Assembly (NCBI GenBank): GCA_964457295.1
Contig: CAYWEE010000001.1
Coordinates: 14,298 to 78,297 of the forward strand
Origin: an uncultured Gammaproteobacteria bacterium
GTDB taxonomy: Bacteria > Patescibacteriota > Patescibacteriia > 2-12-FULL-60-25
DNA length: 64,000 nt
Reading direction: 5' to 3'
Shown here piece after piece: positions 9,312-59,510 of the stretch. Each line of letters opens with the position of its first letter. Within the stretch, counting starts at the first letter, position 1. The translations under genes were made by a program, and so were the position numbers. The notes below the pieces were generated by a model. The model was not told the origin of the DNA and did no database searches. It saw nothing but the letters and a program-made list of their open reading frames with translations.

Positions 9312-9557
9312 ATGTGGTCTATCTATCTCGTGCGTTGTGCCGATGGAAGTTTATATACCGGAATTTCTACCGATGTTTTGAAGCGCATCGAATGTCATAA
9401 TGCTGCCAAAGGGGCGGCGTACACGCGGAGTCGACGTCCGGTGGTTTTGGTGTGGCACGAAGCTGCGGCTTCGGAATCTGCAGCGCGCAAACGTGAGGCT
9501 GAGATTAAACGGTGGAGTAAGACGCAAAAAGAAAGGTTTGTGGCCGTGCCACGGTAG
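9312..9557 (+). CDS. GIY-YIG nuclease-domain protein (YhbQ/UPF0213-like)
   Basis: 81 aa. IYLVRCADGSLYTGISTD...RIECHN...REAEIKRWSK matches the GIY-YIG core. Confidence 0.85.
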   Translation: MWSIYLVRCADGSLYTGISTDVLKRIECHNAAKGAAYTRSRRPVVLVWHEAAASESAARKREAEIKRWSKTQKERFVAVPR

Positions 9558-9578
9558 GTCGTTCGCGAACGACCTACC
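9553..9578. terminator. Perfect palindrome hairpin after the GIY-YIG gene
   Basis: GGTAGGTCGTTCG/CGAACGACCTACC overlaps the TAG stop. Confidence 0.6.
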
Positions 9579-9701: not shown

Positions 9702-9710
9702 AAGGCGAAC

Positions 9711-9823
9711 GCTCTGATTTGGCGAGCTTCGGGCGCTTCGCCTGGAAATATCCTCAACGTACGTCATAGTACGTCTCCGGTATTTCCGTGCTCCAGCATC
9801 CCGAATCTCATCCAAATCAGAGC
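9711..9823. repeat. ~113-bp imperfect palindrome, ERIC-like element, copy A (candidate structured RNA)
   Basis: Outer stem GCTCTGATTTGG/CCAAATCAGAGC, inner GGAAATA/TATTTCC, apical ACGTAC/GTACGT. Homologous copy at 47176-47297. Confidence 0.8.
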
Positions 9824-9852
9824 CTTCGAGATACCGTATAAGCGGGATTAGT

Positions 9853-10410
9853 ATGGCGCGAGACGAGGCTTTCGTCAATGGATATGCTACCCTGGGACTT
9901 ATGACCATTCCAAGCTTTGAGGTGTTTGCCTCGCAGATTGAAGATTATATCCAGGTTTTTGATCGGTTTGCTTTTGGGAATGAGCTCGTAGGAAAAGCTG
10001 GTGCCGATCATATCTGCTGGAAGTGTGAGACCACGGCTGAGTTCGAGACGATGCGTGCGATGTGCGAACCTCAGAGCCTGTATCTGTATCAATCCTATAT
10101 TTCAGGTCGGCGCATTGCCTATTTCAAGTTTGCACATCCATTCATAACCTCCCTTGGGTCTATTTATTTTTTGGAGTTGGCTGATCAAAAACCTGATCAG
10201 AGTCAAACCAGTGGATTGGATCATATCGAAATCTATCCTCACGGCACCTCGGTTGGGACTCTCGTTAGCCACCTGGAATCTCACAACGTTGTCCTTCAAA
10301 AAATTGTGCGTCCGCATCATACAACGTTTGATCTGGCGATCGACGATCATCATATGATTCGTTTGGAGTCAGAGCCGCTCATTCAAAAAATTATAGCCAA
10401 AGAATTATGA
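9853..10410 (+). CDS. VOC-family protein, YecM-like
   Basis: ADHICWKC...GRRIAYFKF...GLDHIEIY follows the YecM layout. Confidence 0.65.
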   Translation: MARDEAFVNGYATLGLMTIPSFEVFASQIEDYIQVFDRFAFGNELVGKAGADHICWKCETTAEFETMRAMCEPQSLYLYQSYISGRRIAYFKFAHPFITSLGSIYFLELADQKPDQSQTSGLDHIEIYPHGTSVGTLVSHLESHNVVLQKIVRPHHTTFDLAIDDHHMIRLESEPLIQKIIAKEL

Positions 10411-14146: not shown

Positions 14147-15262
14147 ATGTTGATTGTAAAACACGTTTCTCTCGCTACGCTTATCTGGATTCGCCGGGTG
14201 ATGCTATGGGTGGCATTGCTCGGACTTTTTGCGTCCACGTATCTTTTGATTACCTATGTCTCTGGTACGCCCATCGTGTGTGGTTTGGTGAGCGGGTGTG
14301 AGGCGGTACGAGCATCGTCGTGGTCGTATACATTTGGCATCCCGCGTCCGGCATTGGGGGTAGCGTTTTATCTTGCGATCATCGGTTTGTTGATTTATCG
14401 CGTATACGCCCCGCATCATCTTCGACGGTGGAGCAATGTGAGTTGGTTATTAACGTTCGTCGGTTTTATCGAGTCCGGTTTTTTGACCCTAGTCCAATGG
14501 ATTGATATCAAGGCGTTTTGTATTTGGTGCTTGGTTTCGGCGGTCGCTTCGACGGTATTGTTCGTGCTGTCCTTTTTTGATGCTGAGGATCGTTTAGATA
14601 CGCGGATGGCGTTTCGTGAATTAAAAACGATTCTATTTTCATTCATTGTTGCCATGATTGCGGGTGGTTTGGGGTTGTATCTTTTGCTTGCCGCCCCATT
14701 GCGTGGAGAAAAGATTATTGAAAATGTTGTCGCTAAAGATCCGCAGGCTGCCGGCCTGATCCTTCCTACGACGCCGGTAGAGGGGCCCGTAAGTTCGACG
14801 GTCACCATTATTGAGTTTTTGGATTTTGAGTGTCCTGGCTGTGCAGCGTTTCACCCGGTTATGCAGCGGATTCGTCAGGAGTTTGCGGGCCGCATTCGCT
14901 ATGCGCAGCGTTTGTTTCCATTGGTCGAGACGCACCCGCATGCTAAAGGAGCGGCGATTGCTGCTGTTTGTGCGCAGCGACAGAATCAGTATTATCCCTA
15001 TGCGGATGCCTTAATCGTGAACCGTGACCATCTTACCCGTGATGATCTTATTCATTATGCCGAGGCCTTGCGTTTGGATCGTGCCGCTTTTGTGACCTGT
15101 CTTGATGATCCTACCGCCGCCGAAGTTGTTATCGCTGAACGCAAAGCTGGTGAAGCACTCGGTATTGATAGTACGCCAACCATCTTTTTAAACGACGCTG
15201 TTTTTGAAGGAATTCCAAGCTATGAACAACTCCGCACTCTCATCGAACAAGGCCTTAAATAA
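14147..15262 (+). CDS. Vitamin K epoxide reductase (VKOR) fused to a DsbA/thioredoxin-like domain
   Basis: VKOR core with a CGLVSGC loop cysteine pair and CIWC active site in TM4, then FLDFECPGCAAFHP. ATG at 14147 (tracked GTG at 14123 lies inside a hairpin). Confidence 0.8.
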   Translation: MLIVKHVSLATLIWIRRVMLWVALLGLFASTYLLITYVSGTPIVCGLVSGCEAVRASSWSYTFGIPRPALGVAFYLAIIGLLIYRVYAPHHLRRWSNVSWLLTFVGFIESGFLTLVQWIDIKAFCIWCLVSAVASTVLFVLSFFDAEDRLDTRMAFRELKTILFSFIVAMIAGGLGLYLLLAAPLRGEKIIENVVAKDPQAAGLILPTTPVEGPVSSTVTIIEFLDFECPGCAAFHPVMQRIRQEFAGRIRYAQRLFPLVETHPHAKGAAIAAVCAQRQNQYYPYADALIVNRDHLTRDDLIHYAEALRLDRAAFVTCLDDPTAAEVVIAERKAGEALGIDSTPTIFLNDAVFEGIPSYEQLRTLIEQGLK

Positions 15263-17131: not shown

Positions 17132-17209
17132 CGGAATCCTTCGACTCCGCTGCTGCTCCGCTCAGGAAAGAATAAAGGAAATTCGTCCCTGAGCTTGTCG
17201 AAGGGCTAC
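17132..17209. repeat. Composite palindromic intergenic repeat (CCTGAGCTTGTCGAAGG family), copy R1
   Basis: CCTTCGA...CTCAGG...CCTGAG...TCGAAGG. The reverse complement matches blocks of 22093-22195. Confidence 0.75.
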
Positions 17210-17212
17210 AAT

Positions 17213-17243
17213 AAAAAAAACGACCCCACAGGGCCGTTTTTTT
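17213..17243. terminator. Bidirectional intrinsic terminator between convergent grx and prx
   Basis: A8-CGACCCC-ACA-GGGCCG-T7. Confidence 0.6.
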
Positions 17244-27505: not shown

Positions 27506-27558
27506 GGGGAGGGCGAATTGCCAATCTGGCTTTTTTCGGGCAGACTGGGCGAACACAG

Positions 27559-27585
27559 AGGGCGGACACATCGGTCCGCCCCTAC
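27559..27585. repeat. GC hairpin repeat AGGGCGGACRCATCGGTCCGCCCCTAC (copy 2)
   Basis: 26 of 27 nt identical to 2404-2430. Ends 4 nt before the lepA ATG. Confidence 0.6.
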
Positions 27586-29407: not shown

Positions 29408-29427
29408 TACAGTGAGCTTGTCGAACT

Positions 29428-29529
29428 ATGAAAAAACAAACCAAGCAAATTTTGTGGAAGATCCTCTTGAGTTTTGTTGCCTTCTCCACGATCTTCTTTT
29501 TGCTCGCGCCACTCGCGACGATGTTTTAA
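29428..29529 (+). CDS. Possible 33-aa membrane peptide
   Basis: Not in the ORF track. MKKQTKQILWKILLSFVAFSTIFFLLAPLATMF fills the lepA-recJ gap; its stop lies 3 nt before the recJ ATG. Confidence 0.3.
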   Translation: MKKQTKQILWKILLSFVAFSTIFFLLAPLATMF

Positions 29530-33248: not shown

Positions 33249-33938
33249 ATGAAGAGAATTTTTTCGTTTTCTCAATCAATAGTGGTCATTGTTATCGCGT
33301 CCATGTTGGCATCTATATCGTTTCCACAAGCCTCGTTTGCCGCTACCTTGACTGCCACTTTTGTTCCAGATCTTGATGGATGGAAGAGTTTTAAGACGGG
33401 CTATCAAGGATTTTGGGCGGATGGGTATAATTCTTTCGGCGCTCCGATTACAAGTGGTGAAACATATAAGAAGATTGATGAAAATCCTTGTGCAACAAGT
33501 TTATATCTTGACGATTATATTTTTCCTCGAGTAAGCACGACCTCTAATCAGGGCGATATCGAACAAGCTTATCGAATGCAGATCTATTCCTTTATTGCGG
33601 TTGGTAGCGAGATTCAGAGTATTAAAATTACTCCCTGTGCTCATCATCGAAATAGATCTGGCAAAGCTGATAATGGATTAACGCCGACGTTTAAAGTGTT
33701 TTATCGTTACTCCGGTGGCGGGGTTATTTTTCCGGTGACGGGATATAGCCAGCCGTATCAGCTCAGTTCTTCCACTCAAGCCGTATCAGCAGATCTTGCG
33801 CCTGCGGTATTTAACAATTTACATTTGCAGCGAAATATTGGCACGGTATTAGAAATCGGCATTGAGGCGGATGATGTGTATCAATCTGAACAGATCGCTT
33901 TAAGCGGCCTGCGTGCTGAGATTACTTGGTCTGAGTAA
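33249..33938 (+). CDS. Secreted hypothetical protein, 229 aa
   Basis: Signal peptide ending SFA-AT. AT-richer by eye. Lies immediately upstream of the pilus locus. Confidence 0.6.
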   Translation: MKRIFSFSQSIVVIVIASMLASISFPQASFAATLTATFVPDLDGWKSFKTGYQGFWADGYNSFGAPITSGETYKKIDENPCATSLYLDDYIFPRVSTTSNQGDIEQAYRMQIYSFIAVGSEIQSIKITPCAHHRNRSGKADNGLTPTFKVFYRYSGGGVIFPVTGYSQPYQLSSSTQAVSADLAPAVFNNLHLQRNIGTVLEIGIEADDVYQSEQIALSGLRAEITWSE

Positions 33939-33957: not shown

Positions 33958-33990
33958 AACATAAAAGAGCTCATTGAGCTCTTTTATGTT
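33958..33990. terminator. Strong intrinsic terminator
   Basis: AACATAAAAGAGCTC-ATT-GAGCTCTTTTATGTT, a perfect 15-bp stem. Confidence 0.75.
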
Positions 33991-34076: not shown

Positions 34077-36221
34077 ATGGAGGCTAAGCGTCGCGCGGTT
34101 CGGCGTAGGGTCTCTCGTGTAGAGCGAGGGTCGTTGTTTTGGCGTACGCATCACTTGTTAGCTGCGTTTTTGTTGTGCGTCAGTGTTGGGATGTTACTGG
34201 CTTCGTTGACCGTTTCGGTGACGCCTCGGGGTGCTCGTGCGTCATCGGCCGAGAATGTTATGGGATGGATTTGGTCTGATGCGGTGGGGTGGATATCCAT
34301 GAATGATCAAAATGTGGGTGCGTGTGGTGCTGGAGGGTGTGGTGTGTATGGAGTGAATGTTGACCCCGCCTCTCGCGAATTGACGGGTTTTGCTTGGTCG
34401 GATGGGGCGGGGTGGATTTGTGTTGGTACGACATGCAGCACCGATCCGTCGTGTGATGGCGTGCCTCCGGATGGGGCCTTGAAGGCGTATTTGGATCAGG
34501 GGATAGGGACGGTAGAGGCGCATGGGTGGGCTAAGGCGTGTAATTTGGGTGACGATGGTTGGATCTCGCTCAATTGCGCAGAAGTTGGAGCCTGCGCGTC
34601 GCTGAATCCGTATTATAAAGTTGTTTTCAATCCGGCGACCGGATATTTCAATGACGTTTCTGTTCCCGGATCCTCATTTGCGTGGAACGGCACAGTGGGT
34701 GGTGTGGGGTATGGCTACATGGATTTTTCTAATGTATTCATCGCTCCGGAGGGAACGGCGACATCTACGCCTGGACAGCCTCAGCCACAATGTCAGGATG
34801 GGGTTGATAATGATTTAAATGGTGTTGATGATTGCTCGGATCCGGCTTGTAGCGCTGATCCGGCGTGCGGAGAGGATCCGAATAATGGAAGCTGTGTTGA
34901 CGGGGTGGATAACAATAATAATGGTGTCATCGATTGCAATGAAGTGAGCTGTTCTGCGGCGGCGAACTGTCAAGAAAATCCAAATAATGGATCGTCGTGC
35001 CAAGATGGCGTAGATAATAATTTGAATGGAACGCAAGATTGTCAGGAGGTGGCTTGCCAGCCGACGCCCGTGTGCGCAGAGACGCCGGTGAATGGATCGT
35101 CGTGCCAAGACGGTATGGATAATAACGGCAATGGTCTCCAGGATTGTCAGGAGGTAGCTTGTCAGGCCTCACCGGTGTGTGTCGAGACGCCTCAAAATGG
35201 TGCCGCGTGTCAGGATGGTATTGATAATGATGGCAATGGTTTTGTCGATTGTCTCGACGCGCTATGTAGCGCTTCTCCGGTATGTGTGTTGGCCGGAGAG
35301 GCGACAGCTGTTGATCCGGTGACGGGGCTTCCGGTCGGTCAGGATGCGGCTTGTTCTGATGGGACTGATAATGATGGGAATGGTTTGGCAGATTGTGCGG
35401 ATCAAAACTGTTTGAATGCACCGATTTGTACACCTGCTTGGTTACAGGCTAAGTTTGGCAACGTGTATGCTCAAGCTGGGATTAGCGGCGTGGCCAAGTC
35501 GCACGCTACGTATTGTTTAACTTCCGATGGAGATATTACCGGCTTTACGAGTAGCAGCACGTGTATTGAGGCGCAGTCAGGTCAAGATATTCACCTGCCA
35601 AATGAAACGACGGGATACCAGGGGAGTTTGGGGCGCATCGATATCGCCGGTATCTTGAGCGGTCGATATGGAGCGGTGGTATCAAATCCTGTTTCTGTTC
35701 CTCCATCACTTGATGGAAAGGTGTATGTCGTTAACGGAGATTATACCCTTGGTGCTACGACCTTTTTGAATCAATCCGGACCTACGGCTCGAGGCAATGG
35801 TCTTTTGGTGGTGCAGGGTAATCTTACCATCGGAGGAAACCTGTCTTACCCATCTAATGTACTGACGCAGTATGTGCGTAACTTGGCATCATTTGGGGTG
35901 ATCGTGATGCGGGATCCACAAACGGGACAAGGGGGGGGTATCTACATCGCTCCTGGGGTGACGCACATTGTTGGGGCATACTTTGCCGAGGATACTCTGC
36001 ATACGGGAACGCTCTGTCCAAGCTCCATGAGCTGCGCGCTTGATCAGCCGTTGACGATTATGGGGTTAGCGGCGGCCCGTCGCTTCTCGTTTGAGCGTGG
36101 GTATCACAATGCCTCGATGGCGGCCGAGACGATCATTAACGATAGTCGCGCGGTCGCGAACCCCCCACCGGGCATGCAAGAAGTTTCACAATCGTTACCT
36201 CGTTCTAAAGACGCATTTTAG
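34077..36221 (+). CDS. Large secreted or membrane-anchored Cys-rich repeat protein (putative pilus-associated adhesin)
   Basis: N-terminal TM, GWIWSDAVGWISMN / GFAWSDGAGWI motifs, six CxDGxDNDxNGxxDC modules, and a C-terminal ~260-aa domain. Confidence 0.8.
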   Translation: MEAKRRAVRRRVSRVERGSLFWRTHHLLAAFLLCVSVGMLLASLTVSVTPRGARASSAENVMGWIWSDAVGWISMNDQNVGACGAGGCGVYGVNVDPASRELTGFAWSDGAGWICVGTTCSTDPSCDGVPPDGALKAYLDQGIGTVEAHGWAKACNLGDDGWISLNCAEVGACASLNPYYKVVFNPATGYFNDVSVPGSSFAWNGTVGGVGYGYMDFSNVFIAPEGTATSTPGQPQPQCQDGVDNDLNGVDDCSDPACSADPACGEDPNNGSCVDGVDNNNNGVIDCNEVSCSAAANCQENPNNGSSCQDGVDNNLNGTQDCQEVACQPTPVCAETPVNGSSCQDGMDNNGNGLQDCQEVACQASPVCVETPQNGAACQDGIDNDGNGFVDCLDALCSASPVCVLAGEATAVDPVTGLPVGQDAACSDGTDNDGNGLADCADQNCLNAPICTPAWLQAKFGNVYAQAGISGVAKSHATYCLTSDGDITGFTSSSTCIEAQSGQDIHLPNETTGYQGSLGRIDIAGILSGRYGAVVSNPVSVPPSLDGKVYVVNGDYTLGATTFLNQSGPTARGNGLLVVQGNLTIGGNLSYPSNVLTQYVRNLASFGVIVMRDPQTGQGGGIYIAPGVTHIVGAYFAEDTLHTGTLCPSSMSCALDQPLTIMGLAAARRFSFERGYHNASMAAETIINDSRAVANPPPGMQEVSQSLPRSKDAF
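34791..35429 (+). repeat. Six tandem ~105-bp coding repeats (Cys-rich, Asp/Asn-rich modules)
   Basis: For example TCGTCGTGCCAAGATGGCGTAGATAATAA at ~34993 recurs at ~35098. Protein modules: CQDGVDNDLNGVDDCSDPAC..., CQDGVDNNLNGTQDCQEVAC..., and so on. Confidence 0.85.
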
Positions 36222-43150: not shown

Positions 43151-43173
43151 AGCAGGGGATAAATTCCTTGTGG

Positions 43174-43282
43174 ATATGTCTCCCGCCAGGGCACATGTCC
43201 CTTCCCGGTCTGCGGATTCCCTTTAGGTGGATGGTCAGCGTCCTATCCCGTCCAGAGACATGTGCCCTGGCGGGAGACATAT
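43174..43282. repeat. Hairpin element with a conserved 56-nt core, copy 1 (candidate structured RNA or terminator-attenuator)
   Basis: Perfect 26-bp inverted repeat 43174-43199 / 43257-43282. The block 43201-43265 is identical to 58226-58290. Confidence 0.85.
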
Positions 43283-43320
43283 CTTTTTTTATGTTTAAAA
43301 GTGCGAAGTACCTTTCATCG

Positions 43321-43364: not shown

Positions 43365-43862
43365 ATGCAGAAAACTAAAGGGTTTACCCTTATCGAACTA
43401 TTGGTTGTGGTCGGGATTATTGGTCTGTTGGCGACACTTGCTGTGGTGGCGTTTGGAAGTGCTCGAGTGAAGGCGCGGGATGCCAAGCGTGTGGCTGATG
43501 TTCGTTCGGTGGTTTCTGGTCTTGCCGGAGCCGCACAGGATAGTTTGTATCTTTGTCAAAAGGGATGTGGTGCGCCACTTGCGGCAGGGGATTTGGTGAG
43601 CGCTTCGGATATTTGTAACGTGAATTGTAATGGTTCTAGTGCTAATTCTGTGTCTATTAACTATATCAATTTAGGTATTGTGCAGGATGCGGATCAGGCC
43701 AATTGGAGCACAGCATGTGATGGGTCTAACACCAAGTGTAATTATGCCTACGGTGCCGGCTCCACGATTGAGAGTTTTACGATTAACTTCTTTACCGAGC
43801 AGGCTGTACAGGGTATCGCAGCTGGGGCGCATACGGCGGCTCAAACAGGTATCGTTAAATAA
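43365..43862 (+). CDS. Type IV pilin (probable major pilin)
   Basis: Prepilin leader MQKTKG|FTLIELLVVVGIIGLLA, with a Cys-containing C-terminal domain. Confidence 0.9.
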   Translation: MQKTKGFTLIELLVVVGIIGLLATLAVVAFGSARVKARDAKRVADVRSVVSGLAGAAQDSLYLCQKGCGAPLAAGDLVSASDICNVNCNGSSANSVSINYINLGIVQDADQANWSTACDGSNTKCNYAYGAGSTIESFTINFFTEQAVQGIAAGAHTAAQTGIVK

Positions 43863-43871
43863 GAGAAAATA

Positions 43872-43947
43872 GTTCCTGAGCTTGTCGAAGGATGACCAAA
43901 ATCAAAGTATTGCGGCCCTTCGATTCCGCTCCGCTGCACTCAGGGAC
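43872..43947. repeat. Composite palindromic intergenic repeat, copy R4
   Basis: TTCCTGAGCTTGTCGAAGGA...GCCCTTCGATTCCGCTCCGCTGCACTCAGGGAC. Confidence 0.75.
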
Positions 43948-44472: not shown

Positions 44473-45252
44473 ATGTTTCCCCAGTTTTTCAGCCTCGCCT
44501 TTGCCGCGCTTATCGGGGCCGCGCTGGGTTCGTTTGCGAACGTTGTTATTATTCGGTTTCATGAGGAGGTGTCGTTGTGGGGTCGCTCCGCCTGTCCGAC
44601 GTGCAAGAAGCTGCTGCGTCCGCGGCACCTGATTCCCATCGTATCCTGGTTGATGCTGCGTGGTCGTTGTGCGGATTGTAAGGCAGCGATTCATATTCAG
44701 TATCCATTGGTTGAAGGCGCTGCAGTTATGTTGGCTGTGGTGACTGCCCTGCGCCATGATCCGTTTGCTTCGCCATTTTTGTTTTTTGGGGAGTTGATAT
44801 TGATTCTTGGTTTTTTAGTTCCGGTGGTGATGGATATTCGTTGGAAGGAGTTGCCGATTGAATATCTGGTTATCTTAGGCATCTTTGGTTCGGTGATGCG
44901 CGTGTTTGGAACTACGGAAGTTATGGCGTTTGCACAGATTATGTTTGATGTTTTGTTGCCGGTCGTCGTCGCTTCAGCGTTTTTTGGTTTACAGGTTTTT
45001 GTATCCAAGGGTCGTTGGATGGGGAGTGGTGATATTTGGTTTGGTGGCATGATGGGTGCGATTCTTGGTTGGCCGGGGGTCTTGGTCGGCGTGTATCTCG
45101 CCTATGTGATCGGTGGAATGGTGGCGCTTTTTGGTTTGGCGTTTAAAATCTATAAACGAGGGGATCGCCTGCCATTTGCTCCGGCGCTCGCCCTCGGTAC
45201 ACTGATTGCCTATTGGTATGGCCCACAGCTGCTCTCTCTTTTTTCGTTGTAA
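44473..45252 (+). CDS. pilD: Prepilin peptidase PilD (A24 family)
   Basis: N-terminal CPTC...CADC zinc motif. Multi-TM with GSGD and conserved Asp residues. Confidence 0.9.
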   Translation: MFPQFFSLAFAALIGAALGSFANVVIIRFHEEVSLWGRSACPTCKKLLRPRHLIPIVSWLMLRGRCADCKAAIHIQYPLVEGAAVMLAVVTALRHDPFASPFLFFGELILILGFLVPVVMDIRWKELPIEYLVILGIFGSVMRVFGTTEVMAFAQIMFDVLLPVVVASAFFGLQVFVSKGRWMGSGDIWFGGMMGAILGWPGVLVGVYLAYVIGGMVALFGLAFKIYKRGDRLPFAPALALGTLIAYWYGPQLLSLFSL

Positions 45253-45916: not shown

Positions 45917-46540
45917 ATGATGCGAAGGATGATAAAAAGCGGTCAGACTCTCATTGAGCTTTTGGTGGCGATGACTGTGATTTCGGTCGGTCTTTTGGCG
46001 ACGATTACCTTGGTGTACGGCAATCGCATGTTGGTGGAGCGGGATACAGATGAGGTGGTAGCCTTGAACATTGCTCGTGAGGGGATCGAATTAGCCAAGA
46101 ATCTACGTGATAGCAATTGGTTAGCTAATCTTCCTTTTACGACCGGTTTTGTCGGCCCCAATGGTGCGCCTGCAGCCGACTATACCGCTGTTCCAGTTTG
46201 GGATGGACTTGCGAGCGTTCCTTCGTTTGATTTTACCCCAGATGCATTTACGCATCCGGCGACGATCGTGCTTCGATCAACAAATCCCGCGACGTTGGGA
46301 TTTTTTGCGAACAGCAGTACGCTTGCTGCGGTTACGGGATCGACGACACCGTTTCGTCGCTTGTTAACGTTTCATCCGCTCTGCGCGGGATTGCCGGATG
46401 CGCCGCTTGCGAGTGGTGCGGCGTGCAGCGATACAGGTCTCGAAACGGTGGGGATACGCGTGGAGTCGCGGGTAGAGTGGAACCGTGCCGGAAAAGCGTT
46501 TAACGTGACGTTGTATAGCGATCTCTATGACTGGCGTTAA
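45917..46540 (+). CDS. Minor pilin / pseudopilin
   Basis: SGQTLIELLVAMTVISVGLLA N-terminus. Confidence 0.75.
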   Translation: MMRRMIKSGQTLIELLVAMTVISVGLLATITLVYGNRMLVERDTDEVVALNIAREGIELAKNLRDSNWLANLPFTTGFVGPNGAPAADYTAVPVWDGLASVPSFDFTPDAFTHPATIVLRSTNPATLGFFANSSTLAAVTGSTTPFRRLLTFHPLCAGLPDAPLASGAACSDTGLETVGIRVESRVEWNRAGKAFNVTLYSDLYDWR

Positions 46541-46601
46541 ACGACCTTTAAAAAAGGCGATTTGTGCATCTCATCCTTTTGCAAAGGTCGTAAGAGGTAA
46601 G

Positions 46602-47177
46602 ATGCATTCCGGTTTTTCTCTTCTTGAGATGTTGATTGTGATTGCGTTATTTTCGACGCTAACGGTGATTGTCTCGCAAACGTTTATTTCTTTTTCTACG
46701 CTTCATCGTCGTACGGCGAATGCAGCTGTGGTGGGCGCGGAGATGCGTTTTGTTATGGAGTATATCGTTCGAGCTGCCCGGAATCGGGAGTTGAATTATG
46801 TGCTGGCTCCCTTAGATCCGCAGGATACGGTTTTGCATTTGCGTGATTCCACCGGTGCGACGCTGGATGTTGGCTTGCGTCCGGGTGGAACGGGCGGAGA
46901 TTGTGCAGATGCCACCGTGACTCAGTGCTTAGCGGTTTCGATTGACGGTGGAACGACGTGGCAGCCGCTTACGGGTAAGCGGGTTGAGGTAACGAGTTTT
47001 CGTGTGTATCCACGTCCGGCAGATTCGCCGTTCGCTTCGGTGAATGGAGTATACGCATCCAATGTTCAACCGTTTGTGACAGTGACGGTTGGGCTGCGCT
47101 ACATGAGCGAACGGGTAAAAGAGCAGGCAAGTTTGGAGGCGCAGACGACCGTAAGCTCCCGTATCTATGTCCGGTAA
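46602..47177 (+). CDS. Minor pilin / pseudopilin
   Basis: MHSG|FSLLEMLIVIALFSTL. SD AAGAGG precedes the ATG at 46602. Confidence 0.75.
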   Translation: MHSGFSLLEMLIVIALFSTLTVIVSQTFISFSTLHRRTANAAVVGAEMRFVMEYIVRAARNRELNYVLAPLDPQDTVLHLRDSTGATLDVGLRPGGTGGDCADATVTQCLAVSIDGGTTWQPLTGKRVEVTSFRVYPRPADSPFASVNGVYASNVQPFVTVTVGLRYMSERVKEQASLEAQTTVSSRIYVR

Positions 47178-47297
47178 CATTGTTTTATTTGGCGAGCTTC
47201 GGGCGCTTCGGTCAAAAATATCCTCAGCGTACTTACGGTACGCTTCCAGTATTTTTGCCCTCCAGCATCCCAAATCTCATCCAAATAAAACAATGTT
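47176..47297. repeat. ~122-bp imperfect palindrome, ERIC-like element, copy B
   Basis: Outer 17-bp stem AACATTGTTTTATTTGG / CCAAATAAAACAATGTT. Homologous to 9711-9823. Spans exactly from the upstream TAA to the downstream ATG. Confidence 0.85.
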
Positions 47298-48105
47298 GCG
47301 TTTTCATCGGGGTCCTGGGAATATCTTGCCTTTGGCCATTATCATGACCCTGACGATTCTGTTGGGTGGCATTGGAATTGGCGCAGTTGTTTTGAGTGGA
47401 TCAAAAGAATCAAAGCGCACGGATGCAAGCGTTGGCGCGTACTATATGGCGGATGCGGGCGTAGAGCGTCAATTGTATGAGATTCGAAAAAATAATCAGC
47501 CGATTTCGTTTATCAACAGTCTAGGCGGGGTGTATGCGAACGGTGGATCGTGGATTTCGACCGGAGGCCTTGAGCCGATTCTGGCTAAGACGATTGAAAC
47601 GGTTGCGACCAGTAGCGTTGGGGTGATTGATCTGTTTGATCCGGATAATTTATTGACTCCTCCGGGTATCTCCCGTGTCGTGATCGCATGGCAACCGGAT
47701 GCGAATTGTCCCACGACGCCTTCACTCGAGGCGAGTTATGCCTATTGGCAACTCGTGAATGGCGTTCCGGAGCTTCCGACGGATGATGCCTACGTGGTGT
47801 TACCAAAAGATACGCAGGGCAAGATTTCTATTGATGGTCTTGATCCGTCTTCTGCATATCGCATCCGTCTTCGCGCGTTTGAGTGTTCGGCGTATGCGAT
47901 CACGGCCGAAGCGGAGGGCTCGAATGGGGCGGTGTCGTTTCCGGGAGACGTGACGTTGGCGGCCGAAGGAACGTACAATAAAACCACGCAGAAAATCGTG
48001 GTTACGATGCCTAAATTGGATGTGCTATCCGGTGTGTTTGATTACGTTTTATTTTCCGAATGTACCCTCGTAAAAGGATCGGGGGCGCAAGTATGTCCTC
48101 CGTAG
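47293..48105 (+). CDS. PilX-like or minor-pilin-like protein with an N-terminal hydrophobic helix
   Basis: MLRFHRGPGNILPLAIIMTLTILLGGIGIGAVVL. The tracked 47167 start would translate repeat B. Confidence 0.65.
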   Translation: MLRFHRGPGNILPLAIIMTLTILLGGIGIGAVVLSGSKESKRTDASVGAYYMADAGVERQLYEIRKNNQPISFINSLGGVYANGGSWISTGGLEPILAKTIETVATSSVGVIDLFDPDNLLTPPGISRVVIAWQPDANCPTTPSLEASYAYWQLVNGVPELPTDDAYVVLPKDTQGKISIDGLDPSSAYRIRLRAFECSAYAITAEAEGSNGAVSFPGDVTLAAEGTYNKTTQKIVVTMPKLDVLSGVFDYVLFSECTLVKGSGAQVCPP

Positions 48106-48120
48106 CAGGTCAATGGAGTT

Positions 48121-49179
48121 TTACCACAAACTTTTCCATATAACATTTCCGTTTTTCGGGTTGAGTCCTAGAATCGTTCCGCCGATAAGAATGATGGCTT
48201 GATTGTTATGAAAGATAGCATGCGTGAGAGGTGGATTGGCGAGAGATGTGAGAGAGATGGCTCCTAGTTGGGCGGGGGTGGTTTGCCACAAGCGTTGCGC
48301 GTTTACGACACCGCTTAGTATCGCCTCGCGTTCATCGGTTCGGGTAAAACTTCGAATCAAAGTGATGTCTTGCGTGTGATCTTCGGCAAGAATAGCGCCG
48401 TGCAAGAATGTTTCTTGTGGTAAAACGGGGCGTTCTTGGGAATCTTGCAGTGTCGCGCGGGCATTATTCGTGAGGTGAAGTCGAGATGGGGTTTTTCGTG
48501 CACAGGGAGTGAATGTGTTCGATGAGGTGCTGGATGGTGGTTGGAGTGTTTCGAGATCAAACAGATAGGTCCGTCCATCATCCGTAAAGACATTTACGTT
48601 GAATGAGTCTGGTTGTACGACGAGTCGATCTATTCCGGCGCCAAGTTCCGGATGTTGCTTAAGGATCGTTTTTGCATTGACCATAAAGCGTGTTGCCCCA
48701 TGATGCATGTCGATGCCGTGCCAATTTTGTCGTTCGTTCATCCACAATGTGGTGCCTTTAATACCGAGAAGTGTAATGGGGTATCGAAACATCCGACGAA
48801 ATGTTCGTGTTTGATGTTCCAGATCAAATCCGTGCAGGCGAAATGTGTAACTCGGCTCGCCTTCGGGATCGGGAATGGTCAGTGTATCTGTTCCGATGAG
48901 TGTGGTTTGATCTACACAGATATCGTCAACTTCTTGAATGTAGCTTCCTCCCACCAGGGTGGGATTAATGAGTCCCATGTAAAACCAGGCGATTGCGACG
49001 GCAAAACTGGTCCCAGCGATACCGAGGTACCAGCAGATTTGCCTACATCGTTCGCTTTTGGTGAACATCATGATGGCCATCGGGATGATGCCCAGAGAAA
49101 ACAAAACGAGCATGCCCAGTGCGGGTGAACGGAGGAATAGCGAGGTGACGTAATCAACGGGCGTCCAAATGGGATTCAT
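48121..49179 (-). CDS. Hypothetical 2-TM membrane protein, paralog 1 (352 aa)
   Basis: Shares N-terminal (M.P.WTP.D...S.L) and C-terminal (IGGTI.G....GNV.W.SLW) regions with 49207..49989. Confidence 0.65.
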   Translation of the reverse strand: MNPIWTPVDYVTSLFLRSPALGMLVLFSLGIIPMAIMMFTKSERCRQICWYLGIAGTSFAVAIAWFYMGLINPTLVGGSYIQEVDDICVDQTTLIGTDTLTIPDPEGEPSYTFRLHGFDLEHQTRTFRRMFRYPITLLGIKGTTLWMNERQNWHGIDMHHGATRFMVNAKTILKQHPELGAGIDRLVVQPDSFNVNVFTDDGRTYLFDLETLQPPSSTSSNTFTPCARKTPSRLHLTNNARATLQDSQERPVLPQETFLHGAILAEDHTQDITLIRSFTRTDEREAILSGVVNAQRLWQTTPAQLGAISLTSLANPPLTHAIFHNNQAIILIGGTILGLNPKNGNVIWKSLW

Positions 49180-49206: not shown

Positions 49207-49989
49207 TTACCACAGGCTTGTCCAGGCCACATTGCCTGTTGGTTGATCGATACCGACAATTGTTCCTCCAATAAAGAGAAGGGGTTGTGTGTTATGTGAT
49301 GCAGTGTGGGTCAAAGGCGGCTGTGGTCGTGAAAAGGTATGTATGGCGGCGGCGCGAGCATCCACAGGGACGCGCGTGTCATCGGATATGCGTTGACCCC
49401 CGCATGGATAGAGACGTGGAAGAGATGTGTGTGTAAAAGCATCTGCATCTTGCGGAAGATCCAATATAGACACTGGAGCACTGACTGTTTGTTGTGTTTT
49501 ACCGGTGTTGATATCGAGACCAAGGCGTCCTCGTTCCGTTTGAATCCAGACCGTCGTATCTTGAATACCTAGGAGCGCGATGGGGTCACGGAATATACGG
49601 CGAAACGTGCGCGTTTGAGAGGGGAGATTAAATCCATGGACGCGAAAGGTATAGCCGGTATTGCCATCGGTATCCGGGATGCGCATGGTGTCGATGGCGA
49701 TGGCTGTATTACCCACGACGCACAAATCATCGACTTTTTGTATGTAGCTCGCGCCGACGGCGATGGGGTTAATGAATCCCATGAAGACCCAAGAAAAACC
49801 AAAGGCGAGCGCAACACCGATACCGCATAGTCGCCATAGCAGTGTATGGATGTGTTGTTTTTGAGCATCGACAAAGCGCGCGATGATGGCCGGAAGGATG
49901 CCAATACCAAAGAGGATGATCATGCCCCAGCCGGGGGCGTTGAGGTAAAGCGAGGCAAGCTGATCAAAGGGGGTCCATAGGGGGCTCAT
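49207..49989 (-). CDS. Hypothetical 2-TM membrane protein, paralog 2 (260 aa, shorter middle region)
   Basis: Starts at Met MSPLWTPF. Alignable with paralog 1 over YTFR.HGF.L..QTRTFRR.FR.PI.LLGI. Confidence 0.6.
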   Translation of the reverse strand: MSPLWTPFDQLASLYLNAPGWGMIILFGIGILPAIIARFVDAQKQHIHTLLWRLCGIGVALAFGFSWVFMGFINPIAVGASYIQKVDDLCVVGNTAIAIDTMRIPDTDGNTGYTFRVHGFNLPSQTRTFRRIFRDPIALLGIQDTTVWIQTERGRLGLDINTGKTQQTVSAPVSILDLPQDADAFTHTSLPRLYPCGGQRISDDTRVPVDARAAAIHTFSRPQPPLTHTASHNTQPLLFIGGTIVGIDQPTGNVAWTSLW

Positions 49990-50023
49990 GTGGGGCATCA
50001 TAGCAACGGGAGGCCGCCTTTGA

Positions 50024-52174
<2,151 letters not shown>

Positions 52175-58164: not shown

Positions 58165-58195
58165 AATCCCCTCTAAAACAGAGGGGATTTTGTTA
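58165..58195 (+). terminator. Intrinsic terminator after the second dsbA-like gene
   Basis: AATCCCCTC-TAAAACA-GAGGGGATT followed by TTGTTATT. Confidence 0.75.
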
Positions 58196-58200
58196 TTGAG

Positions 58201-58305
58201 ATTTCTCCCGCTCCAGCACATGCCTCTTCCCGGTCTGCGGATTCCCTTTAGGTGGATGGTCAGCGTCCTATCCCGTCCAGAGACATGTGCTGGAGCGGGA
58301 CAAAT
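58201..58305. repeat. Hairpin element with a conserved 56-nt core, copy 2
   Basis: 24-bp stem 58201-58224 / 58282-58305 with 2 mismatches. Its core is identical to copy 1. Confidence 0.85.
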
Positions 58306-58310
58306 ATTCT

Positions 58311-59510
58311 TTATAAGGATGTCTCCATTGGATATCCTTTCTTCTTCCATGCGGCATTCACATCGTCAAATGGTTCGGTGTAAGTGCGACCAAGACGTTG
58401 GAGGCGGATACCGAGGACTTTGGCGTAAAAGCAATTGACGTAGCTGTTGCAGTAGATAAGTAGATCGGCCGTAGGGGGGACGAGAGAGATGATGCGGTTG
58501 ACCTCGGCCGTCGTTGTGGTTTCGAGGGGTAGAGACAGGGCGCCTAGAAGATGGCCGTCGGCATAGTCTTTCGGAGATGTTACATCAATGATCGTGGCCT
58601 TGTTATCGAATTTCTTTTTGGCTTCGTCGAGTGACATAGAGTAGGAGGGCGCGAAGACTTGGCTCCAACGTGTATGGCCCCGCCATGGTAATCCAGCATC
58701 AATCCAGCCCGGTTGTGATGGCATGTTGATGTCGCCTTGTAATCCTCCCTGGATGGCATATGCGCGAGGAAAGCCGTGTGCCCGTAACCAGGTGGCAATT
58801 TCTTGGCCACGGAGACTGGTCCAGCAAATGACGAGAATATCTTTGTCATGTGGCAATGTCTCGGCCTGTCCGTTAATCAAGTCTCCATACCGGATCCAGG
58901 TTGTCGTCGCATCGATGTTTCCTACCTCGCGTTCTTCAGCTTCGCGGATATCAACCAGAAACGTGCGGTCTGACCAGCCTGGCTCGGCTACCACTTGACG
59001 TAACGTTTCAATTGGGACCAGGATAGTAGAAGAGGAGACACGAGACGAGAGGAGATTGGCTGATGTCATTCCGACCGACGAGTCTTCGAGGAGCGGAGGA
59101 ATCCCTTCGAAGGGGTCCCTCGGTTCGTCGGACTCACTCGGGACGACAGATGGGATGTTTTCGTTTGCGTGTTCTATTTCGTATTGAGCCCGTTCGGTTT
59201 TAAATGCTTGTTGAGAGCGACGCAGATGGAGATAGGCAGAGCTGCTCACGATGATGAGGGTCAAAGTAAAGCTTCCTCCAAGGCATATCCAGGCGGCGCG
59301 GCGATGTTTGGGGGTTAGGCGCTGTGCGGTACGCTTGATCCAGATACCGAGCGCTCCAAATACCGTTGAAGCAACCCCGATCATGGTGAAGATCCAGGCG
59401 ACAACGGGCCTAACGAAGTCGGGTGAGGGGATGGCAAAGGTGGGGGCAGCGGTAAAGAGTCCGATGCAGACGAGAGCGGTAATAAGGATTATCATGGCAG
59501 TATGATGCAT
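58311..59510 (-). CDS. Membrane-anchored tandem rhodanese-domain protein
   Basis: Three N-terminal TM helices and two rhodanese-like domains (ILVICWTSLRG; LLIYCNSYVNC). Alternative start at 59495 avoids overlap with the divergent gene. Confidence 0.75.
   Translation of the reverse strand: MHHTAMIILITALVCIGLFTAAPTFAIPSPDFVRPVVAWIFTMIGVASTVFGALGIWIKRTAQRLTPKHRRAAWICLGGSFTLTLIIVSSSAYLHLRRSQQAFKTERAQYEIEHANENIPSVVPSESDEPRDPFEGIPPLLEDSSVGMTSANLLSSRVSSSTILVPIETLRQVVAEPGWSDRTFLVDIREAEEREVGNIDATTTWIRYGDLINGQAETLPHDKDILVICWTSLRGQEIATWLRAHGFPRAYAIQGGLQGDINMPSQPGWIDAGLPWRGHTRWSQVFAPSYSMSLDEAKKKFDNKATIIDVTSPKDYADGHLLGALSLPLETTTTAEVNRIISLVPPTADLLIYCNSYVNCFYAKVLGIRLQRLGRTYTEPFDDVNAAWKKKGYPMETSL

Follow-up and report, generated by a model that had tools for sequence, protein, structure and literature searches.

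The stretch of DNA analysed here (64,000 nt, called the window throughout; positions 14,298 to 78,297 of contig CAYWEE010000001.1 in assembly GCA_964457295.1) carries a type IV pilus operon that encodes PilM, PilO, a T2SSE ATPase, a response regulator, a T2SSF protein, two pilins and an A24 prepilin peptidase (gene at 44473-45252), together with three N_methyl minor pilins and then, as the last gene, a pilin-like protein. The subject of this report is a 122-nt imperfect palindrome at the junction between this last gene and the minor pilin gene before it. It is one of three related copies and is called copy B, copy A lying elsewhere in the window and copy C on a separate contig, L047. Its parts and the genes that it touches are the following.

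46527-47177 (+): upstream minor (pseudo)pilin gene, with the N_methyl motif G/FSLLEM
47167-48105 (+): pilin-like gene, an open reading frame (ORF) of 312 residues from the overlapping ATG, or 270 residues from 47293
47167-47169 (+): ATG overlapping the end of the upstream gene (ATGTCCGGTAA), an 11-nt overlap as in the related contigs L044 and L056
47175-47177 (+): TAA stop of the upstream pseudopilin gene
47176-47297 (+): whole 122-nt imperfect palindrome, copy B, comprising outer stem and core
47176-47186 (+): copy-specific left outer arm AACATTGTTTT, whose first two bases complete the upstream TAA
47187-47286 (+): conserved 100-nt core, ATTTGG...CCAAAT, common to copies A and C
47187-47210 (+): 5' near-invariant block ATTTGGCGAGCTTCGGGCGCTTCG, a 24-mer resembling repetitive extragenic palindromic (REP) sequences, identical in copy A and with one mismatch in copy C
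47211-47259 (+): variable spacer with the inner helices and the apical loop, holding five compensatory pairs
47260-47286 (+): 3' near-invariant block CTCCAGCATCCCAAATCTCATCCAAAT, imperfect inverted partner of the 5' block
47287-47297 (+): copy-specific right outer arm AAAACAATGTT, which includes the ATG at 47293-47295
47293-47295 (+): second in-frame ATG, giving the 270-residue product, buried within the 17-bp stem
47298-47309 (+): possible 3' tail GCGTTTTCATCG, missing from the empty site of L056, its boundary uncertain as L056 is only 75% identical

The palindrome and the pilus genes on either side

The first-pass annotation of this DNA had described a perfect 17-bp stem that starts inside the stop codon of the upstream gene and ends over an ATG of the downstream one, and this description is accurate. 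The two basal arms, AACATTGTTTTATTTGG (47176-47192) and CCAAATAAAACAATGTT (47281-47297), are complementary at 17/17 positions with 88 nt between them (19 pairs if G-C and G.U pairs are counted), the left arm starts with the second base of TAA 47175-47177 in ORF 46527-47177, and ATG 47293-47295 lies within the right arm. Upon folding, the 122 nt form a single long, slightly bulged hairpin, with energies of -48.9 kcal/mol for the + strand RNA (z = -9.5), -59.9 kcal/mol for the - strand RNA (z = -10.7) and -29.5 kcal/mol for the DNA (z = -8.5), and extending the folded sequence by 45-50 nt of flank per side leaves this hairpin unchanged. The stem is A/U-rich at its base, and no terminator-like site is found in 46900-47500, where the GC-rich stem followed by a U-tract that defines an intrinsic terminator is absent. 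There is no promoter-like signal in or beside copy B, and a direct reading finds no Shine-Dalgarno-like sequence before ATG 47167 or ATG 47293.

The stop region of the upstream gene does pair physically with ATG 47293, as had been proposed. However, the importance attached to this pairing is weakened by another start codon: ATG 47167, which overlaps the upstream gene, is intact and in frame, with no stop, through the whole element and into the pilin-like gene, so that sequestration of ATG 47293 may not matter. The resulting 312-residue ORF was called by the gene caller in one metagenome. From the layout of the junction, ATG 47167 is the probable ancestral start, and there is about an even chance that it is also the start now used.

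The label 'PilX-like', which had been given to the downstream protein, rests on gene position and is unsupported by Pfam, NCBIfam or fold searches. The protein belongs to no Pfam or NCBIfam family, and its AlphaFold model (pLDDT 79) shows a 54-residue N-terminal helix followed by a beta-sandwich. A GspK/PilX fold was considered and rejected: the head domain is a jelly-roll-like beta-sandwich, for which Foldseek returns only weak jelly-roll matches in the PDB and neither GspK nor PilX. As modelled, the protein is pilin-like in architecture only, and its homologues are annotated only as Patescibacteria or Candidatus Uhrbacteria. In 90 homologues, the leader that precedes an invariant Gly (then NILPLAL) is short and basic, 2-52 residues long (median 6), and the window protein has the same Gly followed by NILPLAI. 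Read from these alignments, the leaders show a prepilin-type pattern. For minor pilins that lack Glu5, cleavage is known from GspK-type proteins. In five homologues (P0092, P0116, P0112, P0034 and P0074) the invariant Gly is preceded by 31-52 residues, as opposed to the median of 6, and such long leaders may conceal comparable insertions or wrongly called starts. The pilin-like gene is closely followed by two adjacent uncharacterised paralogues, 48121-49179(-) and 49207-50109(-), with similar N- and C-termini and no Pfam match.

A dispersed repeat family with copy-specific outer stems

The three copies, each with its own outer stem, are arranged as follows.

Copy A, 9706-9828 (+): core 9717-9817; left outer arm CGAACGCTCTG, right outer arm CAGAGCCTTCG, 10/11 paired
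Copy B, 47176-47297 (+): core 47187-47286; left outer arm AACATTGTTTT, right outer arm AAAACAATGTT, 11/11 paired
Copy C, core at 518-618 of L047, a contig from JGI sample 3300045354: left outer arm GCAGGCCTCA, right outer arm TGAGGCCTGC, 10/10 paired

The homologue near 9.7 kb that had been pointed out earlier is real. The cores of copies B and A are 82% identical, and their ends are nearly invariant, with 24/24 identical bases on the 5' side and 26/27 on the 3' side. The window contains exactly two occurrences of each end block, the 23-mer and the 27-mer, against a chance expectation of about 0.01, and accidental similarity of the copies is excluded. A count of further copies, which had been suggested as a check, turned up a third one outside the window: a six-frame translation of the element, compared with 5.8 billion proteins, gave a single match, in JGI sample 3300045354, to an over-extended ORF call of an M50 protease, and copy C on L047 was discovered through this match. 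This sample is also among those that hold the window's pilin-gene locus. The core of copy C is 88% identical to each window copy, and across all three copies the 24-nt 5' block and the 27-nt 3' block are invariant save for 1-2 bases. These blocks are imperfect inverted complements of each other, and the ~50-nt spacer between them varies and yet stays paired. A covariance model built on the three cores scores the copies at 111-119 bits and everything else in the window and the fetched relatives at <=14 bits. Run with its filters off, this model finds no further copies in the window or the fetched loci. A 20-mer scan of GTDB representative genomes gave 38 matches, all due to chance (high-GC genomes from which the second block is absent), JGI metagenome contigs, scanned twice, yielded 0 and 6 matches, all due to chance as well, and a scan of viral contigs gave 0 matches.

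The copies also fold stably, with hairpin z-scores of -9 to -11. In the three-copy alignment, 96% of the cells form a standard pair versus 30-50% in slid controls, and five pairs have changed on both sides versus 1.7 in shuffles and 0-1 in slid controls. The two compensatory helices that had been quoted for copies A and B are confirmed, further such pairs appearing once copy C is added. The C.A mismatch described in the same place (TTCGGG opposite CCCAAA) is also present and would be G.U on the minus strand. Such G.U pairs do not assign a strand, as the wobble-only positions are divided into two that favour the + strand and three that favour the - strand. No strand is favoured, because the four single-sided breaks and two G.U positions of the three-copy alignment are also split between strands. 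These compensatory changes do not demonstrate an RNA function, since copying from arm to arm at the DNA level explains them equally well.

The sense strand of the core is unusually open. There are 0 stop trinucleotides in any + frame of copies B and C and one in copy A, in the apical loop, versus ~3.4 expected, and only 2.5% of the 100-nt segments of the window are without any. The three TGAs found in the arms on the - strand all face the three asymmetric internal loops and, being opposite these loops, are not mirrored on the + strand. This openness is no more than suggestive, three related copies counting as one observation.

The family is dispersed, at three distinct loci in the ~70 kb sampled, and each of the three copies precedes a start codon by 0-24 nt, with one and the same orientation to the downstream gene. 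Copies A and C sit between divergent genes: 4 nt separate copy A from the 5' end of tRNA-Gln(-), and 24 nt separate it from the downstream YecM-like gene (9853-10410). If the promoter-like site at 9878-9850 on the minus strand starts transcription, copy A would belong to the pre-tRNA leader. An 81-residue stand-alone GIY-YIG nuclease-domain gene (9312-9557) adjoins tRNA-Gln and copy A. Its TAG stop is overlapped by a perfect, loop-less 26-bp palindrome at 9553-9578 (GGTAGGTCGTTCG/CGAACGACCTACC), ~140 nt from copy A, whose right half opens with CGAACG like the left outer arm of copy A, and which could be a terminator, an operator or an empty 'shell'.

What sets the copies apart are their edges. 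The outer stems directly abut ATTTGG/CCAAAT, where conservation begins, and their sequences are unrelated among the three copies, the outermost 10-13 nt being fully different. Beyond the stem, copy C has a 3' tail of 18 nt, and copy B may have an equivalent one of 12 nt. Because each copy has a stem of its own, the outer stem is a property of the element and not an adaptation that couples these particular pilus genes.

Contig ends near the copies were also recorded. Position 1 of contig L054, from the independent sample SRR12487045, corresponds to position 9757 of the window, the apex of copy A, and contigs with copy B in other samples are only ~2 kb long. Repeats or palindromes probably break these assemblies.

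Several other repeats and hairpins occur in the window. (i) A second, unrelated palindrome family has copies at 43168-43287 and 58193-58312 (120 nt, 85% identical), in which arms of 27-30 nt enclose a conserved loop of 51 nt. The arms differ by a mirrored 4-nt block (CCAGGG/CCCTGG versus CTCCAG/CTGGAG). It has no copy-specific outer stem, and one copy lies between the pilC-like and major-pilin-like genes. (ii) A short dispersed repeat centred on CCTGAGCTTGTCGAAGG is found at 17171-17219, 43858-43906 and 29413-29436, one copy being just upstream of, and overlapping, the 5' end of the second pilin ORF. (iii) Two GGGCGGAC...GTCCGCCC hairpins, at 2399-2430 and 27554-27585, are 91% identical. (iv) A perfect hairpin with a 16-bp stem (33958-33990), 20 nt past a gene that ends at 33938, is followed by a T-rich run and is terminator-like. 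(v) Tandem repeats of ~105 nt at 34784-35396, within a 714-residue ORF (34077-36221) with no Pfam match, translate into repeated copies of an Asp-, Asn-, Gly- and Cys-rich motif.

Insertion at locus C, probable insertion at the pilin junction, and a possible explanation

Locus C, between rpmB and the M50 protease gene, provides the sharpest view of an insertion. Two contigs of one sample (SRR12901034) carry the site without the element: L055, which is 98.8% identical to L047 across 2.2 kb, and L057, which is 99% identical to it over 96 nt upstream. These empty alleles read GGCAAGAG/TCTATATG (at greater length, GGCAAGAG/TCTATATGCT), and the occupied allele in L047 reads GGCAAGAG-GGT-GCAGGCCTCA-core-TGAGGCCTGC-CTGTCCGAACTATTATTT-TCTATGCT, with TCTATG after the insert, which amounts to 142 nt gained and 2 nt lost. 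Copy C is thus a recent insertion that is lacking in co-occurring strains, and it brought its own 10-bp outer stem and 18-nt tail along with the core. At this one junction with near-identical empty alleles there is no direct repeat at the insertion ends, and neither outer arm of copy C is present in the empty site of L055 or L057. An internal promoter and target-site duplications, two features that the first-pass annotation had said would count against it, are both lacking where they were sought, namely around copy B for the former and at locus C, as a direct duplication, for the latter. Since native spacers are tiny (32 nt from rpmB to the M50 gene in the empty allele), it is unremarkable that copies lie 0-24 nt from start codons.

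The pilin junction (locus B) is likewise occupied in the window and empty in L056, L043 and L044. The palindrome had been said to fill a gap between two genes. This is not borne out, as the relatives have compact junctions: the genes overlap by 11 nt in L044-L046 and L056 and are 1 nt apart in L043. In L056, which falls in the same 90% protein cluster and has 75% nucleotide identity, the junction (...TAT GCC CGC TAA ACG TCC TGG) reads TATGCCCGCTAAACGTCCTGG and holds no palindrome, the downstream ATG overlapping the upstream stop by 11 nt (ATGCCCGCTAA), and the junction of the window is 132 nt (44 codons) longer. In contig L042 (160-305; ENA ERZ27280297; 80% nucleotide identity) the same TAA is the site of a 146-nt palindromic insert of apparently unrelated sequence, bounded TAA/TAA. 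Homology of this insert with that of the window, as descendants of a shared older insert, is conceivable but not supported, since the two align poorly and share only short strings (ACAACAAT and GTTTCAT). The junction thus appears to have been struck at least twice by different small palindromic elements. The pilin-like ORF of L042 is open through its insert, with no ATG, GTG or TTG between the insert and GNILPLA, and initiation at an ATG inside the N-terminal hydrophobic segment would yield no more than a truncated protein. Read-through of the insert would therefore be the likeliest route to a full-length protein in this relative. In L044 (8662-8749), and also in L045 and L046, a hairpin of ~88 nt lies in the 243-nt spacer between two minor-pilin genes. 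This hairpin matches the covariance model of the three cores weakly and generically (14 bits), and may represent a further palindromic insertion into this operon. The L056 contig (GCA_020026565.1, JAHQYO010109796.1) begins, at positions 1-19, with AGATGTGTATAAGAGACAG, which we take to be a Nextera transposase adapter and which, if so, was left untrimmed in the deposited assembly.

Simple origins of the outer stem were tried against these junctions. An inverted target-site duplication, that is, a fold-back copy of a 10-11 nt target, fitted copy B, where deleting the left arm and the core (111 nt) restores an in-frame leader, and was rejected as neither arm exists in the empty alleles of locus C. 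The same alleles rule out, for locus C, a core inserted into a pre-existing loop-less palindrome, and the joined outer arms were not found elsewhere. A direct target-site duplication at copy B was also dismissed, the 8/9 match of AACATTGTT and AACAATGTT being a by-product of the near self-complementarity of the 9-mer.

The explanation that we consider likely is that copy B is a member of a small non-autonomous hairpin-repeat family in an Uhrbacteria-like Patescibacterium, which has inserted in the leader of a pilin-like protein. The family would be a previously undescribed one, probably representing a known kind of selfish DNA and not a dedicated regulator, with an outer-stem behaviour that is possibly a new variant. 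The insertion of copy B would have hit the leader codons at the 5' end of the pilin-like gene that closes the type IV pilus operon, where the copy could be tolerated because (i) it is in frame and stop-free, so that ATG 47167, coupled to the upstream TAA, would still drive translation through it, and (ii) the leader before the invariant Gly is short and variable and is probably removed by the operon's own prepilin peptidase. Propagation would probably involve a single-stranded hairpin as intermediate and an enzyme that acts in trans, its gene lying elsewhere in the genome, as proposed for REPINs. The perfection of the stem, the compensatory changes and the outer stems would probably come from one arm being copied off the other by fold-back or template-switch during replication or repair, without selection on an RNA, template switching being a source of multi-base compensatory change and stem extension (PMC8794818). 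The outer stems fit such arm copying if it acts on sequence that is not from the target and whose source is unexplained. Effects on expression would be by-products: masking of ATG 47293, a roadblock or an extra leader peptide for ribosomes that start at 47167, and possibly RNase III-type cleavage of a long double-stranded RNA.

Five points weigh against this explanation. (i) Only three copies serve as evidence for the family, which limits what can be said of copy number, of the generality of the outer stem and of a partner transposase. (ii) A Pfam scan of the 67 window ORFs finds no Y1_Tnp, RAYT, transposase or integrase in the 64 kb. (iii) We know of no transposition chemistry that explains copy-specific, perfectly paired outer stems. 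(iv) The boundaries of the copy B insertion are uncertain, the empty sites being only from relatives with 75-80% nucleotide identity, and part of its right flank might be native. (v) The same orientation in 3/3 copies, together with the stop-free sense strand, could signal a selected function.

The outer stems could also be taken at face value, as the product of an undescribed route of integration, which we regard as an unlikely variant. Here, the core would integrate along with a newly made, copy-specific outer stem, one arm of which would derive from a non-target or untemplated source and the other from fold-back priming, with no target duplication, and the imperfections of the element would be shaped to keep one strand free of stops in every frame, which would allow it to colonise the 5' ends of coding sequences and the tiny spacers in gene-dense genomes of the candidate phyla radiation.

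A selected translational device is one rival, which we regard as improbable. It states that the element was recruited as a coupling or regulatory module, the pilin-like gene being translated only when ribosomes that finish the upstream gene melt the stem. The perfect 17-bp stem that spans TAA 47175-47177 and ATG 47293 and survives folding with flanks is what such a device would need, the lack of a Shine-Dalgarno-like sequence at either ATG means that local structure should dominate initiation, and the fact that 3/3 copies share an orientation and precede a start codon by 0-24 nt speaks in its favour. However, copies A and C, between divergent genes with nothing to couple, have an equivalent stem of other sequence, and close relatives are without the element (L056) or have an unrelated one (L042). 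Moreover, the ancestral coupled start at 47167, with its 11-nt overlap, is intact and in frame, so that coupling need not be reinvented, and the tiny native spacers (such as the 32 nt between rpmB and the M50 gene) place any surviving insertion beside a start codon.

A role in RNA processing or stability, whereby a nearly continuous double-stranded RNA of ~50 bp would be cut by RNase III or would expose an RNase E site, and would so detach the last gene from the operon transcript and set its level, is quite unlikely as the explanation. Long stable RNA hairpins form on both strands, the element lies within a co-oriented operon, and Correia and ERIC elements are a precedent for effects on RNA cleavage and processing (PMC10969869). 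Such processing would nevertheless be an effect and not an origin, compatible with a selfish hairpin repeat, and the element has no nuclease-specific sequence.

Readings of the element as an attC site, a terminator or a promoter were all rejected. The first belongs to a broader, very unlikely possibility, that of a DNA recombination or protein-binding site, either a folded site like integron attC or a cruciform to which a host protein binds. In its size of ~120 bp, its imperfect dyad symmetry and its conserved extrahelical bases the element recalls chromosomal attC repeats, and the DNA hairpin is stable, but the copies are dispersed among housekeeping genes with no cassette array, there is no integrase in the window, a direct reading finds no R''/R' motifs (RYYYAAC / GTTRRRY) at the base of copies A and C, and conservation is the opposite of that in attC sites, whose base is conserved and centre varies. 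A multi-copy structured non-coding RNA gene is hardly credible despite the compensatory pairs and very low folding energies, given that (i) Rfam has no match for it other than generic miRNA hairpins far below threshold, (ii) promoter and terminator signals are missing and the structure is a plain hairpin, and (iii) the element is present or absent among near-identical strains, with wobble-only positions that conflict between strands.

Likeness to known palindromic repeats

Neither sequence nor covariance searches place the element in a named family. In the window, only tRNA passes the Rfam gathering threshold, and around the element the best matches are generic miRNA precursors at 12-20 bits versus thresholds of 54-100, so that the Rfam check proposed with the first-pass annotation returns no family. 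Phage and plasmid collections hold no match to the element, and a text search of the literature found no such palindromic repeats described for Patescibacteria. The earlier statement that the element is ERIC-like in size and unrelated in sequence is confirmed in its second part by blastn (word size 11, E <= 1), which finds no match in 5,426 complete Escherichia coli genomes. The likeness itself stands only in part: this is indeed a dispersed imperfect palindrome of similar size, but its closest analogues are REPINs and Rickettsia palindromic elements (RPEs).

ERIC/IRU elements share with it a size of ~122-127 bp, an imperfect palindrome in transcribed regions of operons and the potential to alter the fate of an mRNA. 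Unlike them, it conserves two sub-terminal blocks while its ends vary, it has no sequence similarity to them and its host range is different. Copy B lies within a co-oriented operon, as an ERIC/IRU element would, although its site was originally coding or overlapping sequence and not an intergenic gap. Correia-type miniature inverted-repeat transposable elements are alike in being short, non-coding and multicopy, with terminal inverted symmetry and insertion polymorphism between strains. They differ in that the present element has no direct target-site duplication (at its one resolved junction) and unconserved outermost bases, and that no partner insertion sequence is known for it.

RPEs are among the in-frame palindromic elements that have been reviewed (PMC10969869). 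The resemblance is one of architecture, namely a palindrome of 100-150 bp that lies in frame inside a protein gene, has a stop-free sense strand and could add a peptide encoded by the element. The differences are that only one of three copies is intragenic, that this copy sits in a leader that is probably cleaved and not in the mature protein, and that the phylum is unrelated.

REPINs, REP doublets that form hairpins and are mobilised by Y1 transposases known as RAYTs, commonly display compensatory changes (PMC3116915). The present family resembles them in its unit of ~100 nt, its two conserved inverted sequences of ~25 nt around a less conserved spacer with compensatory changes, the dispersal of its copies in short intergenic space, the lack of a target-site duplication and a transposase that is not encoded by the element. 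Yet REPIN membership cannot be claimed because there is no RAYT in the 64-kb window. Other differences are that neither conserved block is plainly a short palindrome carrying a GTAG-type foot (on direct reading, the 24-mer shows weak C(TTCG)G-type self-pairing and no clear stem), and that a unique paired outer stem and tail arrive with each insertion, a combination that, to our knowledge, has not been described for REPINs. The host also differs, being a bacterium of the candidate phyla radiation.

Several implications follow. The pilin junction holds a lesson for annotation, as a hairpin that looks 'intergenic' lies inside an ORF whose original start codon is upstream. Such repeats can occupy genes by way of a variable, probably cleaved pilin leader, and can fragment metagenome assemblies. 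A copy-specific outer stem, together with a missing target duplication, could point to an unusual integration mechanism. Finally, the known small palindromic repeats (REP/REPIN, ERIC, Correia and RPE) have been described mainly in Proteobacteria and a few other cultured groups, and it now appears that the gene-dense genomes of ~1 Mb in the candidate phyla radiation also carry hairpin repeats that were recently active.

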